Positions 1,108 to 33,202 of a DNA stretch of 64,000 bases are shown piece by piece; within the stretch, counting starts at the first letter, position 1, and each line of letters starts with the position of its first letter. This DNA comes from Verrucomicrobiia bacterium (GTDB lineage: Bacteria; Methylomirabilota; Methylomirabilia; Rokubacteriales; CSP1-6). Below the pieces are notes generated by a model, which saw only the letters and a list, made by a program, of their open reading frames with translations, had not been told where the DNA came from and did not search any database. Location: NCBI GenBank assembly GCA_035493135.1, contig DATJIR010000380.1:4501-68500 (forward strand). The letters are read 5' to 3'. The translations under genes were made by a program, and so were the position numbers.

Positions 1108-1123
1108 CGGCATCGCGCATGCA
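1108..1123 (+). promoter_or_regulatory. possible weak sigma-54 type -24/-12 element (CGGCATcgcgcATGCA)
   Basis: GG and GC have the canonical spacing, with three mismatches to TGGCAC-N5-TTGCA. The -12 C lies 55 nt upstream of the USP ATG at 1177. Confidence 0.3.
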
Positions 1124-1176
1124 CTCGATTGTCCGGGAATGAATAATTTCGCCGACACCCTCTACGGGAGGAGACG

Positions 1177-1653
1177 ATGTACAAGCGTGCACTGGTAGCA
1201 CTCGATGGCTCCCCGGTGGCCGAGACCATCATCCCATTCATCCTGGACATCGCCGGGCCTCTGGACCTCGAGGTGATCCTCCTCCGCGTCCTCCAGCCGC
1301 TCCCGCCGGTCGTGGTCGATGGCGCGGCGTACGTCCCGGTCGAAGACCCCGTGGCGGAACGGATCGACGCGCAGGAATATCTCGCCCCGGTGGCGATCGA
1401 GCTTCGGAACAAGGGCGTGCGCGCCACGACCGAGGTACGCAGCGGCGACCCGGCCCAGGAGATCGTGGCGGCGGCGCGTGAAGCCGGAGCCGATCTCATC
1501 GCGATGTCCACTCACGGGCGCGGCGGCCTGGGACGCCTGATCTTCGGGTCGGTGGCCGAGGCGGTACTGCGTGAGGCGGAGATCCCGGTATTCCTGCTGC
1601 GGACCACGGAAGCCGAGGTGGCGAGCCGCCGCCGGCGTGAAGCCGTGACGTGA
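1177..1653 (+). CDS. universal stress protein (UspA family)
   Basis: MYKRALVALDGS... and ...AMSTHGRGGLGRLIFGSVAEAVLREAEIPVFLL are USP hallmarks. GGAGGAG lies upstream of the ATG. Confidence 0.9.
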   Translation: MYKRALVALDGSPVAETIIPFILDIAGPLDLEVILLRVLQPLPPVVVDGAAYVPVEDPVAERIDAQEYLAPVAIELRNKGVRATTEVRSGDPAQEIVAAAREAGADLIAMSTHGRGGLGRLIFGSVAEAVLREAEIPVFLLRTTEAEVASRRRREAVT

Positions 1654-1666
1654 CGGCACGCCCGGC

Positions 1667-2236
1667 TCATCCCGCCGGCAGGGTCTTCCGAAGCGCGGAG
1701 GCGGCCGCCACGAGCAGCACGCCGAAGGCGAGCGCGTAGACGCCGAGGGTGGACACGACCGGCGGCTCCCCGGCGTGGGGCAGGACGAGGATGATCACGG
1801 CCAGGAACAGCGAGAACACCCCGCCGGTCGCCAGCAGCCAGTAGCCGGCTCCCCGACGGGGCAGGCGGACCGCGGCGGTGATCTCCAGGATCCCGGTGAG
1901 AAGGCCCCAGGTGGCGATGGCGAGCACGAGCTCGCGGGGCACGAGCGGCCACACGAGCGCGAGCCCGCCCACCGCGACACTCACCGCGCCTTCGAACAGG
2001 ACGGGCCACGCCGCGAACCACGTCCGCGTGACCCACAGCGCCGACGCGATCGCCCAGGCGCCGTCCAGCAGCGCGTAGGCGCCGAAGAGCGCCACCAGCA
2101 GGTTCAGGGAGGTGGCCGGGCGGAGCAGGAGCAGGGCGCCGAACAGGATCGCGAGCGCGCCCCTGGCACCGATCATCCACCAGTTCTTGCCGAGCGTGAC
2201 GAGAAGAGCGTGCCCGTCGGGCCTAGCGTTGATCAT
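1667..2236 (-). CDS. HdeD/DUF308 family membrane protein
   Basis: N-terminal ...GKNWWMIGARGALAILFGALLLL plus six hydrophobic helices are typical of HdeD-like proteins. It overlaps the stop of the upstream gene by 14 nt. Confidence 0.8.
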   Translation of the reverse strand: MINARPDGHALLVTLGKNWWMIGARGALAILFGALLLLRPATSLNLLVALFGAYALLDGAWAIASALWVTRTWFAAWPVLFEGAVSVAVGGLALVWPLVPRELVLAIATWGLLTGILEITAAVRLPRRGAGYWLLATGGVFSLFLAVIILVLPHAGEPPVVSTLGVYALAFGVLLVAAASALRKTLPAG

Positions 2237-30862: not shown

Positions 30863-33073
30863 CTATCGGAGCGGGACCGAGCTCCCGGCACCGAGGATGC
30901 CGTGGCTGCCGTCCACCGGCAGGGTCACCGTGAACGTGGTGCCCTTGCCCACCTGGGACTCCACGTCCACGCTGCCCTCGTGATCGTGGATGATGCCGTG
31001 GCTGACCGAGAGCCCGAGCCCGGTGCCGTCGGGCTTGGTGGTGAAGAAGGGGTCGAAGATCTTCGACAGGATCTCGGGGGCGATGCCGGTCCCGGTGTCG
31101 CGGACCACCAGCCGGACCGAGCGGGCCTCGGGGTCGTGGCCGGTCTCGATGGTGATCTCGCCGCCCGCGTCCGGCATGGCCCGCCGGGCATTGGTGAGCA
31201 GGTTCAGCAGTACCTGCCCGATCGCGTTGGCGTCGGCCATGATCTCGGGCAGGGCCTCGTCCCGTCGCAGGGTCACCTGTACGTGCGCGCGGTCCATGTC
31301 CTTCCGGACGAGCTGCAGGATCTCCTCGACGACCCGGTTCAGGTCGACCGGGGCGCGCACCCCGGAGGACCGGCGGGCGAAGGACAGCAGGCCCTGCGTG
31401 ATCGAGGCCACCCGCCGGGCGTGGCGCAGGATCACCTCGAGGTCCTTGCGCATCTCGGCGGGCAGCTCCTCGCCCTCGGCCTCGAGCAGCATCACCTCGA
31501 CGCGCGAGGTGATGATGCCGATGGGGTTGTTGATCTCGTGGGCGATGCCCGCGGAGAGGGTGCCGAGGGCGGCGAGCTTGTCGGCCTGGCGGGCGGCGCG
31601 CTGGAACGCCAGGCGCTCGCTGATGTCGGTGACGAAGGCGATGGCCCGGATGCCGTCGTCGGTCTCCACGAAGCTCAGGCTGACCTCCACCGGGAACTCG
31701 GTGCCGTCCTTCTTGACCCCGGCCAGGTCGAGCCCCCGTCCCATGGAGCGGACGCGGGGCGCGGCCAGGTAGCCGGCGCGGTGGACCACGTGCGCCGCCC
31801 GCGCGCGACGCGGGATCAGGATCTCGACCGGCTGGCCGAGCAGCTCGGCGCGCTCGTAGCCGAACATCTTCTCCGCCTTGTCGTTGACCCGCACGATGGC
31901 GCCCGCCGCGTTGGTGATCACGATGCTCTCGGAGGCGGACTCGAGGAAGGCGCGGGAGGTGGCCTCGCTGCGGCGGAGGGCCTCCTCCGCCGCCTTCTGC
32001 GCGCCGATGTCGCGGCCCACGATCGAGATGCCGATCACCTTGTCGGGCGCGTCGCGGATCGGCGACACGGTGAGGAAGACGTGGACCCGCCGGCCGTCCT
32101 TCGTGACGTGCTCGGTCTCGAACCGCTCGGTGGTCTGCTGCCGCCGCACTCGATCGAGGGCCGCCGCCATCTCGGCCCGCCGCTCGCTCGCCAGGAGCAG
32201 GTCGACGGGGCGGCCCCGCACCTCGGCCGCGGGGTGGCCGTAGAGCCGCTCGGCCCCGTGGTTCCAGGTCAGGATGCGCCCCTCGAGGTCCAGGCCGACG
32301 ATGGAGTCGTCGGAAGACTGCACGAGCGAGGTGAGCAGCGAGGTCGTCTGCTCGTGCTCGGCGACCTGCTCGCGCAGCGTCGCGCGGGTCAGCCGGAGCT
32401 CGCGGGCGCGCTGCCCGCTCTCCACGATCAGGAAGACCAGCACCAGCAGGGCGGCGGTGGCGAGCGCGGCCAGGATGATGAGCACGTGGCGGGCCTGCTG
32501 GGCCCGGCCGGTGGCCTCGGCGAGGCGCCGCTGCTCCTCCTCCCGCATCGCCCCGAGGACCGACCGGATCCGCTCGCTGGCGTGGAGGCCGCGATCGGTC
32601 AGGACGAGCCGGAAGGCCGCGTCGGCGCCCTTCTCGCGCCGCAGGCGGATGCTCTCGCGCAGCTCCTCGAGCTTGTCCCGGAGCGGGGTCTCCAGGCCCG
32701 CGAGCTGCCGCTCGATGTCCGGACGGTCCGGCGCGAGGCTGCGGAGGGTGTTGACGTGGGACTCGACGATGTCGGCCGACGCGGTGAGCGACGGCGCCAG
32801 GTAGCGGTCGTCCCCGGTGAGGAGGAAGCCGCGCTGACCGGTCTCCGCGTCGGTGACCCCCGAGCGGATGCTGTCGAGTTCGGCCACGATCTCGCTGCTG
32901 CGCCGGATCGCCTCGTACTGCTCGACGAGGTGGCGGGCGCTGACCGCGACGACCGCGATGGCCCCGAGAATGGCGGCGGCCACCGCGAACTCGAAAGCCA
33001 CCCGGTGGCGGACGAGCCAGTTCGTCACGTGGCCTCGGCGCGCGGGAGCATGAACGGCTGCATTGTGGGCCAA
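30863..33073 (-). CDS. sensor histidine kinase: CHASE3-like sensor, TM, two PAS domains, HisKA, HATPase_c
   Basis: AETGQRGFLLTGDDRYLAP is CHASE3-like. The H-box is SAGIAHEINNPIG, the N-box LLNLLTNARRAM and the G-boxes DTGTGI and GTGLGLSVS. Start is TTG 33073 or GTG 33028. No response regulator is adjacent. Confidence 0.9.
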   Translation of the reverse strand: MAHNAAVHAPARRGHVTNWLVRHRVAFEFAVAAAILGAIAVVAVSARHLVEQYEAIRRSSEIVAELDSIRSGVTDAETGQRGFLLTGDDRYLAPSLTASADIVESHVNTLRSLAPDRPDIERQLAGLETPLRDKLEELRESIRLRREKGADAAFRLVLTDRGLHASERIRSVLGAMREEEQRRLAEATGRAQQARHVLIILAALATAALLVLVFLIVESGQRARELRLTRATLREQVAEHEQTTSLLTSLVQSSDDSIVGLDLEGRILTWNHGAERLYGHPAAEVRGRPVDLLLASERRAEMAAALDRVRRQQTTERFETEHVTKDGRRVHVFLTVSPIRDAPDKVIGISIVGRDIGAQKAAEEALRRSEATSRAFLESASESIVITNAAGAIVRVNDKAEKMFGYERAELLGQPVEILIPRRARAAHVVHRAGYLAAPRVRSMGRGLDLAGVKKDGTEFPVEVSLSFVETDDGIRAIAFVTDISERLAFQRAARQADKLAALGTLSAGIAHEINNPIGIITSRVEVMLLEAEGEELPAEMRKDLEVILRHARRVASITQGLLSFARRSSGVRAPVDLNRVVEEILQLVRKDMDRAHVQVTLRRDEALPEIMADANAIGQVLLNLLTNARRAMPDAGGEITIETGHDPEARSVRLVVRDTGTGIAPEILSKIFDPFFTTKPDGTGLGLSVSHGIIHDHEGSVDVESQVGKGTTFTVTLPVDGSHGILGAGSSVPLR

Positions 33074-33096
33074 GGCCCGGGCCGCATCAAGGGGCC

Positions 33097-33134
33097 CTGG
33101 GGCGCCGTCGCCACAGCGAGGCGGGGCCGCCTCG
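33097..33134. promoter_or_regulatory. candidate enhancer sites: dyad CTGGGGCGccgtcgCCACAG plus adjacent palindrome CGAGGCGGggCCGCCTCG
   Basis: The first dyad starts exactly 90 bp upstream of the TGGCAC, as at 5613/5703. The block ...CGCCTCGGCA is shared with the first hsp20 promoter. Confidence 0.5.
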
Positions 33135-33186
33135 GCAGTCGTCGACCTCTCGGGCCGTAACTTACCGAATCGATGAGGATCTCCCG

Positions 33187-33202
33187 TGGCACCCGCGTTG
33201 CA
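33187..33202 (+). promoter_or_regulatory. sigma-54 promoter (TGGCACccgcgTTGCA)
   Basis: A perfect consensus. The -12 C lies 49 nt upstream of ATG 33250. Confidence 0.85.

Follow-up and report, generated by a model that had tools for sequence, protein, structure and literature searches.

We describe here a cluster of putative promoters in a 64,000-nucleotide (nt) stretch of DNA (GenBank assembly GCA_035493135.1, contig DATJIR010000380.1, positions 4,501 to 68,500 of the forward strand), referred to below as the window. A series of boxes matching TGGCAC-N5-TTGC exactly or nearly so are likely to be enhancer-dependent sigma-54 (-24/-12) promoters of one stress, dormancy, and repair regulon, a reading that we base on the DNA sequence and its comparison with relatives. 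Upstream of the boxes lies a shared dyad, TGRGGC-N6-GCCYCA, which appears to serve as their enhancer. Candidate targets in or next to the window comprise two HSP20 genes, five genes for universal stress proteins (USPs), several CBS genes, the DUF302-archease-RtcB, HAD-AAA/MgtA, and DksA-like/cytochrome c/phosphofructokinase (PFK) sets, and genes encoding an ADP-forming acetyl-CoA synthetase, a phosphoenolpyruvate (PEP) synthase, PCMT, a fatty acyl-AMP ligase/acyltransferase, and HU.

Sigma-54 boxes in and upstream of the window

Genes in the window, which has a GC content of about 72% throughout, were called by third-position GC, and the calls were checked against public contigs encoding identical proteins. 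An earlier note on this DNA had reported five exact intergenic matches to TGGCAC-N5-TTGC, each directed toward the next gene. All five were found (at 18113, 22520, 24992, 26633, and 33187, all on the plus strand), where 0.06 would be expected and where none of 100 dinucleotide-preserving shuffles reached five. Allowing one mismatch raised the number of matches to eight (2.17 expected), the additions being 5703(+), 17969(-), and 41139(-). A scored scan, in which GG and GC were obligatory and 11 fixed bases were scored, covered the window together with 8.8 kb of upstream contig (locus L084). It returned four sites with all 11 fixed bases and five with 10 of 11, against expectations of 0.02 and 0.54, respectively. 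These nine sites scoring ≥10/11 (0.56 expected) were without exception intergenic and oriented toward the next gene, so that the equal motif density inside genes that the earlier note had considered was not what the scan revealed. The 9/11 class (4 observed, 8.3 expected) and the 8/11 class (41 observed, 63 expected) lay mostly inside genes and showed no enrichment over shuffles, and for that reason two of the three weaker sites proposed previously, 5571(-) with 9/11 and 1108(+) with 8/11, cannot stand on score alone, whereas the third, 17969(-), scores 10/11.

As had been stated, site 5703 deviates from the consensus by one mismatch, and the boxes at 26633 and 33187 consist of the same 16-mer, TGGCACCCGCGTTGCA; since the sequences surrounding these two boxes are unrelated, an origin from a repeat or mobile element was ruled out. 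The distance from the -12 C to the start codon amounts to 57 nt for 5703, 16 nt for 18113, 28 nt for 22520, 40 nt for 24992, 41 nt for 26633, and 49 nt for 33187; a leader of 40 to 57 nt, as proposed before, is thus present at four of these sites but not at 18113 and 22520. Beyond approximately 38 kb, the scored scan and the annotation showed ordinary metabolism genes and no sigma-54 boxes. An Rfam search for RNA elements in the leaders, for example, ROSE thermometers upstream of hsp20, gave no hits at gathering thresholds.

A scan of species-representative genomes placed the locus in Candidatus Methylomirabilota (Rokubacteria) and yielded relatives with RtcB identities of 94% (one genome, L004) and 77 to 81% (about ten genomes). 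An RtcB of exact identity was found on a contig of metagenome-assembled genome (MAG) GCA_046723765.1 and on several soil metagenome contigs; exact look-up of the product of 60177-62054 found no identical protein and hence offered no extension downstream of the window. Sigma-54 boxes are kept before orthologous operons in the genomes with 77 to 94% RtcB identity, while the N5 spacer and the flanks vary. Pairwise alignments of the window with L004 showed conserved boxes, with changed spacers, before the genes for hyp185, DksA, and HSP20_b, in intergenic DNA much of which has diverged, and in L005, L007, L008, and L009, boxes precede (USP/HSP20)-archease-RtcB operons. The cluster also continues upstream of the window, as TGGCAG-type boxes precede an HU-CBS operon and a CBS gene in L084, where a GGGCAC box additionally precedes a 102-amino-acid (aa) gene. 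With this extension, the cluster measures about 40 kb and contains roughly a dozen promoters.

Could the matches be something other than promoters, namely, products of chance, copies of a short repeat, or operators of a conventional transcription factor? Two sites do share an identical 16-mer, and no rpoN was found in the window and 2.07 Mb of fetched loci. However, only 0.06 chance matches are expected, the flanks of the identical 16-mers are unrelated, and the motif is asymmetric, always directed toward the next gene, conserved at orthologous positions, and, in relatives, physically linked to GAFTGA-bearing activator genes. We regard this explanation as highly improbable. Like the earlier note, we read the sites as sigma-54 promoters, because of their canonical spacing, their intergenic and oriented placement, their conservation at orthologous positions, and the phased dyad upstream of them. 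That they display every sequence-level property of such promoters that could be tested here is supported.

A shared dyad upstream of the boxes

Enumeration of k-mers upstream of the non-redundant boxes identified CGCCCCA/TGGGGCG in 12 of 17 promoter-upstream regions, compared with 4.8% of background chunks (p ~7e-13). The string CTGRGGC occurs 25 to 150 nt, and mostly 60 to 100 nt, upstream of 14 of 20 boxes, where random placement predicts 1.2; it is absent from the mirrored downstream interval and present once in the next interval upstream. These positional tests replaced a first intergenic control for the upstream element, which was noisy owing to over-extended open reading frames (ORFs) and missed genes (Fisher p = 0.11). 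When the elements were stacked, an 18-bp dyad, TGRGGC-N6-GCCYCA, emerged. All eight dyads with ≤1 mismatch in the window and its upstream extension sit 59 to 134 nt upstream of a box, and dyads with a 5- or 7-nt spacer showed no enrichment in the same DNA, making the dyad specific to the 6-nt spacer. Its strength is one of position relative to the boxes, not of count. A separate element, CCTCGGCAAG, which had been considered at 5703, 22520, and 33187, was abandoned, since at 5703 and 33187 it is the right half of the promoter-proximal dyad.

The association was also seen in the reverse direction: in relatives, 15 of 19 dyads with ≤1 mismatch were followed by a sigma-54 box of ≥9/11 at 58 to 99 nt on the correct side, and boxes overlooked by the first pattern were recovered in this way. 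Metagenomes were searched with a composite pattern consisting of the box, 50 to 80 nt, and an exact dyad (together, a module). At least 119 stretches matched, and 80 loci were returned, about 76 of which, among the matches listed, have a GC content of 59 to 75%. The 72 unique high-GC modules among the matches listed fall into three distance classes, with the dyad 68 to 73, 77 to 82, or 87 to 98 nt from the box, and not one of them has a distance of 74 to 76 or 83 to 86 nt, though the pattern permitted all values. The Rayleigh R was 0.57 to 0.58 at a period of 10.5 to 11 bp (p ~4e-11; 99.9% null, 0.31). Since USP promoters occupy all three classes, this phasing is not merely a matter of descent from one ancestral promoter. 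In 33 of the same 72 modules, a second, weaker dyad is present at ±19 to 21 nt, with other offsets unenriched, and the window contains pairs at this same offset (5614/5633, 26544/26564, and 33098/33117). Position 6 of the box, left unconstrained in the pattern, is a C in 47 of the 72. Likewise among the matches listed, the first gene behind the module (67 unique cases) most often encodes a USP (13) or HSP20 (11), followed by CBS (6), YgaP-like (4), GroEL (3), and BON (3) proteins. The dyad centre lies about 86 to 115 bp upstream of the inferred transcription start. Taken with its spacing rules, TGRGGC-N6-GCCYCA would be a newly recognised enhancer sequence.

A candidate activator in related genomes

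In line with the earlier statement that neither an activator gene nor rpoN is present in the window, its six frames contain no GAFTGA, Walker A of a bacterial enhancer-binding protein (bEBP), or RpoN-box peptide. The corollary, an activator acting in trans, finds support in the relatives, where the same module directly adjoins the gene for an activator with a receiver domain (REC), an AAA+ domain, and a helix-turn-helix (HTH). Among the matches listed, bEBPs are encoded in six metagenome loci. Those of L110, L113, and L167 are members of a single orthogroup, to which the activator encoded in the USP/RtcB cluster of L014 can also be assigned, and the three metagenome loci have the same layout: PAS kinase, activator, dyad plus box, and USP. 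Four further loci, L207 to L210, were picked by protein rather than by motif, and all four show kinase, activator, dyad-plus-box module, and USP; in all, the activator gene adjoins the module in seven of seven Methylomirabilota-type loci (L110, L113, L167, and L207 to L210). The kinase and activator genes overlap by 4 nt in L110, L167, and L207 to L210. The module of L208 precedes a USP-USP-kinase-activator operon, which implies autoregulation, and other modules in the loci picked by protein precede the gene for pyruvate:ferredoxin oxidoreductase (PFOR) and a ferredoxin-NrfD operon.

The activator of these relatives bears GAFTGA and has the domain order REC, Sigma54_activat, HTH_8. At E < 1e-100, 5107 relatives were retrieved from a database, and those with names carry annotations as sigma-54-dependent regulators from Rokubacteria, Methylomirabilia, NC10, or Binataceae. 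The protein scores under the equivalog cut-offs of AtoC, NtrC (443 versus 558.6), and RtcR (330 versus 650), and its best solved relatives are NtrC1, NtrC4, LuxO, and NtrC. One helix, GIDRKTFHRL[LI]NKY, is common to all module-linked activators, and the out-group homologues of L014 (TIHRLMTKY) and L211 (TLHRLLSKH) are both without dyads; dyad presence, in other words, tracks the HTH sequence of the activator.

Further loci add variations on this arrangement. A second type of bEBP, of about 600 aa and with a PAS N terminus, is encoded in L127 (170-2134) and L091; its own gene has an exact dyad ahead of it, with an 11/11 box at a distance of 98 nt, which suggests that two sigma-54 activators are linked in a regulatory cascade. 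One MAG, GCA_040961615.1, carries two paralogous kinase-activator pairs (L207 and L209), each adjoining a USP module, whose activators are 76% and 86% identical to the L110 protein and have nearly identical recognition helices; several sensors may converge on one enhancer type. In a Binataceae MAG (L211, 6001-10482), an activator homologue adjoins an ADP-forming acetyl-CoA synthetase-GNAT fusion, a CBS gene, and a single-domain receiver, with no TGRGGC-N6-GCCYCA dyad in that stretch, and the theme of the regulon may be older than this enhancer sequence.

A different arrangement would have each of the sigma-54 promoters answer to its own, unrelated activator, with the dyad being a GC-rich structural hairpin (a terminator or insulator) instead of a common enhancer. 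Some facts fit that picture: rtcBA of Escherichia coli is served by a sigma-54 activator of its own, RtcR; GC-rich palindromes are frequent in intergenic DNA of 72% GC; the dyad at 24893 shares sequence with a hairpin found right behind rtcB; one MAG has two kinase-activator pairs, and the PAS-type bEBP is itself a module target in L127; and the earlier note, writing of "activator(s)," had left their number open. As to the hairpin, however, dyads are also present in the divergent promoter regions at 5614 and 33098, where no upstream gene ends, and they have an exact 6-nt spacer, distances of helical turns, and second copies at 19 to 21 nt, the latter two of which are unexpected of terminators. 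As to the activators, no RtcR/CARF protein is encoded in the window, the rtcB promoter bears the same dyad as the others, and dyad presence follows the HTH sequence. Separate activators are, in our judgement, unlikely. RtcR-type control of rtcB was specifically discarded, as the window contains no such gene and the promoter carries the regulon-wide dyad. The shared dyad argues for one activator specificity and against several unrelated activators, and the dyads are most likely bound by an NtrC-type activator encoded elsewhere in the genome.

The kinase of the window and the likely signal

Divergent from the HSP20_b module, the minus strand of the window (30863..33073) encodes a sensor histidine kinase in which Pfam recognises CHASE3, PAS, haem-type PAS (PAS2), HisKA, and HATPase domains. 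It is 53 to 59% identical to the kinases that are co-operonic with the module-linked activator in L110, L113, and L167, and from this identity, together with a similar dimerization and histidine phosphotransfer (DHp) region, we infer that it pairs with the activator of the regulon. PAS2 matches the haem-PAS domains of FixL and DosP with E values of 1e-10 to 1e-13, and in the HMMER alignment, its "RAAH" histidine falls in the FixL column that we take to hold the haem-ligand histidine. The kinase is probably oxygen sensing, and the resemblance of PAS2 to the haem-PAS sensors FixL and DosP makes low oxygen, or a gas or redox cue related to it, the most likely trigger. The earlier note had overlooked this homologous kinase, as well as the shared enhancer and the continuation of the cluster upstream of the window.

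The regulon and its activator might also be as described here and yet respond to something other than oxygen: energy or redox state, NO or CO, envelope stress via CHASE3, heat, or starvation. The sensory parts of the related kinases do differ (CHASE3 in the window, GAF in L167 and L209, and PAS only in L207, L208, and L210), the HSP20, GroEL, USP, BON, PCMT, and RtcB targets are general stress and repair genes, and the window kinase, whose haem binding is a prediction, falls far under the FixL cut-off. On the other hand, PAS2 is the domain that these kinases have in common, the ligand histidine is conserved in it and its closest relatives of solved structure are haem-PAS oxygen sensors, the targets include genes of fermentative or low-oxygen metabolism (ADP-forming acetyl-CoA synthetase and PFK, with PFOR and malic enzyme in relatives), and hypoxia is the cue for both of the nearest functional analogues, NmpR and DosR. 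We consider a non-oxygen signal quite possible, if short of an even chance, and retain low oxygen or a related cue as the preferred trigger.

Several observations speak against one regulon with a shared enhancer and a haem-PAS input. Counted in the window alone, five dyads contrast with 1.59 expected, a modest excess that was attained in 4 of 100 shuffles; two dyads, those at 18044 and 1026, have two mismatches each and are within chance expectation; and the dyad was derived from the same data, to be confirmed on independent loci afterwards. Immediately behind the rtcB stop codon (24883-24915), a GC-rich hairpin (GAGGCGG...CCGCCTC) shares sequence with the dyad at 24893, and this dyad may be a terminator, an enhancer, or both. 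At box 18113, the sigma-54 leader would have about 3 to 5 nt before the GTG and no Shine-Dalgarno sequence, compared with GGAGG in the other operons. The activator of this genome itself was not located, the matching MAG contig ending at about window position 30007. A tblastn search with an E. coli RpoN query gave no hit in the 2.07 Mb of fetched loci, and the signature peptide was likewise absent from the window and these loci, negatives that hold for this sequence and not for the genome as a whole, although thousands of GAFTGA-bearing activators named Rokubacteria, Methylomirabilia, or NC10 lead us to infer that rpoN is present in the phylum. The window kinase, finally, is an orphan, with an extra CHASE3 domain and no partner regulator in the window. 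It scores 182 against the FixL family cut-off of 850 and is also under the AtoS cut-off, Arg220 of FixL is not exactly aligned in PAS2, and the conserved PAS2 histidine fits haem binding without proving it.

Predicted promoters and operons of the window

Most of the gene labels given previously were confirmed by Pfam and NCBIfam, including mgtA, which matches the TIGR01524 equivalog with a score of 897.8 (cut-off, 610.75). Corrections concern the proposed hsp20-USP-CBS-acs operon: the gene labelled acs encodes an ADP-forming acetyl-CoA synthetase (CoA_binding, Succ_CoA_lig, and ATP-grasp_5 domains), and no CBS domain lies between the USP and this enzyme.

Six of the predicted promoters, 5703, 5571(-), 22520, 24992, 26633, and 33187, are well supported. 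The first two are divergent. Box TGGCACTCGCGATGCA (5703..5718, plus strand; 10/11 bases, with one mismatch) is followed by a 57-nt leader carrying a GGAGG Shine-Dalgarno sequence and by genes encoding HSP20 (5774-6211), PCMT (6244-6915), USP (6897-7334), a small ORF, ABC/FtsX, and PEP synthase (9512-11926). Box CGGCATCTGCCTTGCA (5556..5571, minus strand; 9/11 bases and an exact dyad at 60 nt) precedes an operon encoding, according to Pfam and NCBIfam, a CBS protein (5092-5514) and the fatty acyl-AMP ligase/acyltransferase (2223-5072). The tandem dyads TGGGGCGGGCGAGCCTCA (exact) and CGGGGCGCGCGCGCCTCG (two mismatches), which lie 19 nt apart at 5614..5650, are common to both promoters, at 89 nt from box 5703(+) and 60 nt from box 5571(-); the latter distance, measured from the exact dyad (5614-5631), is one helical turn below the 69-nt class.

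Dyad TGGGGCGTGCGCTCCCCA (22449..22466; one mismatch), a putative enhancer, is found 71 nt upstream of the exact box TGGCACTTCCGTTGCA (22520..22535, plus strand), and the operon behind it encodes DUF302 (22562-22969), archease (22977-23405), and RtcB (23413-24882), as identified by Pfam. L004 retains both elements at the orthologous place (dyad and box at 4181/4252). In that genome (4181-9328), a small ORF and an HlyD-AcrB (RND efflux) pair are inserted between the dyad and box and the DUF302-archease-RtcB genes, such that the orthologous promoter region now heads a longer operon.

Upstream of box TGGCACTTGGATTGCA (24992..25007, plus strand; an exact match, kept in L004 with a changed spacer), the dyad region at 24893..24930 consists of CGGGGCATCGCCGCCTCA (one mismatch, 99 nt) followed by a CGCCCCAGC element at 24924, and it is conserved in L004 at 11481. 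The operon encodes a secreted Q/P/R repeat protein (25046-25603), DUF2267 (25617-26006), and a CBS protein (26006-26425). The first of these products has tandem Q/P/R-rich repeats (QDIQAPRQQEIQAPRSQ...) and no Pfam match; it differs in repeat number from its L004 counterpart (179 versus 185 aa), to which it is 75% identical.

The two copies of TGGCACCCGCGTTGCA are both exact matches on the plus strand and both have tandem dyads upstream. The copy at 26633..26648, which shows two spacer changes in L004, is preceded by CGGGGCCCACCGGCCCCG (two mismatches, 89 nt) and TGAGGCGTGTTCTCCTCA (one mismatch, 69 nt), 20 nt apart at 26544..26581, a block that is conserved between the window and L004, unlike the surrounding intergenic DNA; downstream are genes for a DksA/TraR-like protein (26688-27050), cytochrome c (27047-27352), and ATP-PFK (27386-28480). 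The copy at 33187..33202, with one spacer change in L004, is preceded by TGGGGCGCCGTCGCCACA (one mismatch, 89 nt) and CGAGGCGGGGCCGCCTCG (two mismatches, 70 nt), 19 nt apart at 33098..33134, which form the longest conserved block of the intergenic alignment between the window and L004. Its operon encodes HSP20 (33250-33681), USP (33686-34126), the ADP-forming acetyl-CoA synthetase (to 36641), and a further USP (36651-37118); the USP at approximately 37148-37504 probably belongs to it as well. The window contains five USP genes (1177, 6897, 33686, 36651, and ~37148) and two HSP20 genes.

Promoters 18113 and 17969(-), with weak in-phase dyads and very short leaders, are plausible. Box TGGCACTAGGATTGCT (18113..18128, plus strand), an exact match, precedes genes for a HAD-AAA fusion (18143-19882) and an MgtA-type P-type ATPase (19883-22408); the start of the former gene cannot lie further downstream, because the HAD motif DFDGT begins at codon 9. 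The divergent box GGGCACCCCGCTTGCA (17954..17969, minus strand; 10/11, intergenic) precedes an OmpA-family lipoprotein gene (17408-17947), whose start codon is just about 9 nt past the box. Between the two boxes is the weak dyad TGGGGCAGGGGTGACCCG (18044..18061; two mismatches), which is in phase with both, at 92 nt from 17969(-) and 69 nt from 18113(+).

Promoter 1108 is uncertain. The weak sigma-54-like box CGGCATCGCGCATGCA (1108..1123, plus strand; 8/11 bases), upstream of a USP gene (1177-1653), is intergenic and has the right orientation and a two-mismatch dyad (1026-1043) at an in-phase 82 nt, a combination that is within chance (~1.6 expected, 2 seen).

In the upstream extension, at L084 1717-2596 (approximately window positions -7100 to -6230), an HU/IHF-family gene is the first of a module-driven operon that continues with genes for a CBS protein and a 447-aa P-loop-like protein, and a perfect CCCCAGCTGGGG palindrome lies upstream of its TGGCAG box. 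Placed within a sigma-54 regulon, a DNA-bending protein of the HU/IHF type could exert feedback on the formation of loops. Outside the regulon, in regions with no sigma-54 box (38216-38683, 44354-51000, and 54412-56620), the window encodes an F420H2-dependent quinone reductase, a 2-hydroxyglutaryl-CoA dehydratase D-component-like protein, a molybdopterin oxidoreductase with an NrfD-type membrane subunit, a hemerythrin-domain protein, and OsmC.

Proposed mechanism and implications

We propose the following course of events. The kinase would sense low oxygen or a related gas or redox cue and feed the activator encoded elsewhere, an NtrC-type regulator with a REC domain, an AAA+ domain bearing GAFTGA, and a Fis-type HTH ending in GIDRKTFHRL[LI]NKY. 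Once phosphorylated, this regulator would bind, as dimers, the one or two TGRGGC-N6-GCCYCA dyads, usually 19 to 21 bp apart, that each promoter would carry. With the distal dyad edge at about 60, 70, 80, 90, or 100 nt upstream of the -24 TGGCA, the bound dimers should always occupy one and the same helix face; the activator would then oligomerise, touch the sigma-54 holoenzyme via a short DNA loop, and open the promoter with ATP. A two-component sigma-54 activator with an upstream dyad is a textbook mechanism, and in this respect, the finding extends known biology and will be no surprise to specialists.

More tentatively, with the balance close to even, we speculate that soil Methylomirabilota share a phylum-wide hypoxia and dormancy programme built from haem-PAS kinases, a dedicated NtrC-type activator, tandem dyads 20 bp apart, and sigma-54, functionally convergent with DosR, and that its outputs would be chaperones, USP/CBS energy sensors, RtcB-archease RNA repair, ribosome rescue and hibernation, and metabolism generating ATP at the substrate level. 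Genes for an S30AE ribosome hibernation factor and for baeRF_family10 (eRF1-like) proteins were seen in or beside module clusters of L210 (5807-9281), L207 (15990-17117), and L010 (17199-18329). Along with RtcB-archease, they suggest that one part of the regulon serves the shutdown and repair of translation.

Among soil bacteria, the Methylomirabilota/Rokubacteria are abundant, have large genomes, and have not been cultured; hardly any work has addressed their regulation. Literature searches returned no paper linking them to sigma-54, and a 2025 cross-phylum survey of sigma-54 regulons omits them. The promoter-like strings of the window become a testable circuit here, which comprises a promoter, an enhancer whose spacing follows explicit rules, candidates for the activator family and for a haem-PAS sensor, and a set of target genes. 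With the enhancer rules, the regulon can be predicted directly in any MAG of the lineage, and soil metatranscriptomes can be read for signs of entry into a low-oxygen survival state.

Comparison with known systems

With rhizobial FixL, the window kinase shares a PAS of the predicted haem type, in which the putative proximal histidine is conserved, coupled to a HisKA/HATPase kinase. FixJ, however, is of the LuxR type and works with sigma-70, and the window kinase carries CHASE3 and a further PAS domain and scores 182 against the FixL cut-off of 850. The activator of the relatives has the REC, AAA+ (GAFTGA), and Fis-type HTH order of NtrB-NtrC/glnAp2 and of Aquifex NtrC1 and NtrC4, and the dyad of about 17 to 18 bp, the tandem sites, and the proposed sigma-54 activation from about 100 bp upstream agree with the NtrC paradigm as well. 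Unlike with NtrC, the targets are unrelated to nitrogen assimilation, and the spacing between dyad and promoter is short and strictly quantised by helical turns, suggesting a small, rigid DNA loop.

The rtcB gene of E. coli and Salmonella is transcribed from a sigma-54 promoter under its dedicated activator, RtcR, and such a promoter before rtcB (here, box 22520) is the sole likeness to the RtcR-rtcBA system. RtcR is a CARF-AAA+-HTH protein, whereas the relatives have a receiver-domain activator and the window encodes no bEBP; moreover, RtcB is grouped here with archease and DUF302, not with RtcA as in rtcBA.

The DosR/DevR dormancy regulon of Mycobacterium tuberculosis includes USPs, HspX, the CBS protein Rv2626c, RtcB (Rv2631), the P-type ATPase Rv1997 (CtpF), Pfk, and phosphoribosyltransferases (PMC5309233). 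USPs, an alpha-crystallin HSP20, a CBS pair, RtcB, a P-type ATPase, and a phosphofructokinase occur in both regulons, a likeness at the family level rather than the orthologue level, and the phosphofructokinase is PFK-A here, unlike the PfkB of the DosR regulon. In relatives and the flank, the likeness extends to phosphoribosyltransferases, NAPRTase, an eRF1-like factor, a ribosome hibernation factor, and a PGA_cap protein. A search with a window USP retrieved Rv2623 among the top PDB hits, and one with the window CBS protein did not retrieve Rv2626c; identity with DosR-regulon proteins at the orthologue level thus found support for USP but not for CBS. Both systems have a haem-based kinase input (predicted here), but DosR, of the NarL/LuxR type, recognises another DNA motif and works at promoters of the sigma-70 type, with GAF-haem kinases DosS/DosT, in place of the NtrC-type AAA+ regulator, sigma-54, and PAS kinase proposed here. 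DosR-like gene content under another regulator class would bear on the evolutionary rewiring of dormancy programmes.

The closest described system is NmpRSTU of Myxococcus xanthus. There, the NtrC-like regulator NmpR occupies tandem sites of dyad symmetry ahead of sigma-54 promoters located between genes, and its regulon, which is induced under hypoxia, contains genes for a CBS protein, a USP, and a P-type ATPase; the genes of the regulator and kinase are subject to autoregulation, and signalling starts with a haem-dependent kinase (PMC11841059). Shared with our proposal are the NtrC-like regulator, the tandem dyads, sigma-54, and the CBS, USP, and P-type ATPase targets. The binding sites differ, GCGCA-N5-TGCGC at 14 to 15 bp apart for NmpR versus TGRGGC-N6-GCCYCA at about 20 bp apart here, and the NmpR consensus itself was rejected for the window, with 10 matches (≤1 mismatch) versus 12.9 expected and none upstream of a box. 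The sensors differ as well: NmpRSTU has the protoglobin kinase NmpU and a phosphorelay with the hybrid kinase NmpS, in contrast to a single PAS(-GAF)-HisKA-HATPase kinase directly upstream of the regulator gene here, and no globin or hybrid kinase was seen in the kinase-activator loci. The regulon proposed here, in another phylum, is larger than that of NmpR and centred on HSP20, USP, RtcB, and central metabolism, with no cbb3 oxidase or hemN seen. After Myxococcus NmpR, it would be the second example of hypoxia-type stress genes under NtrC/sigma-54 control.

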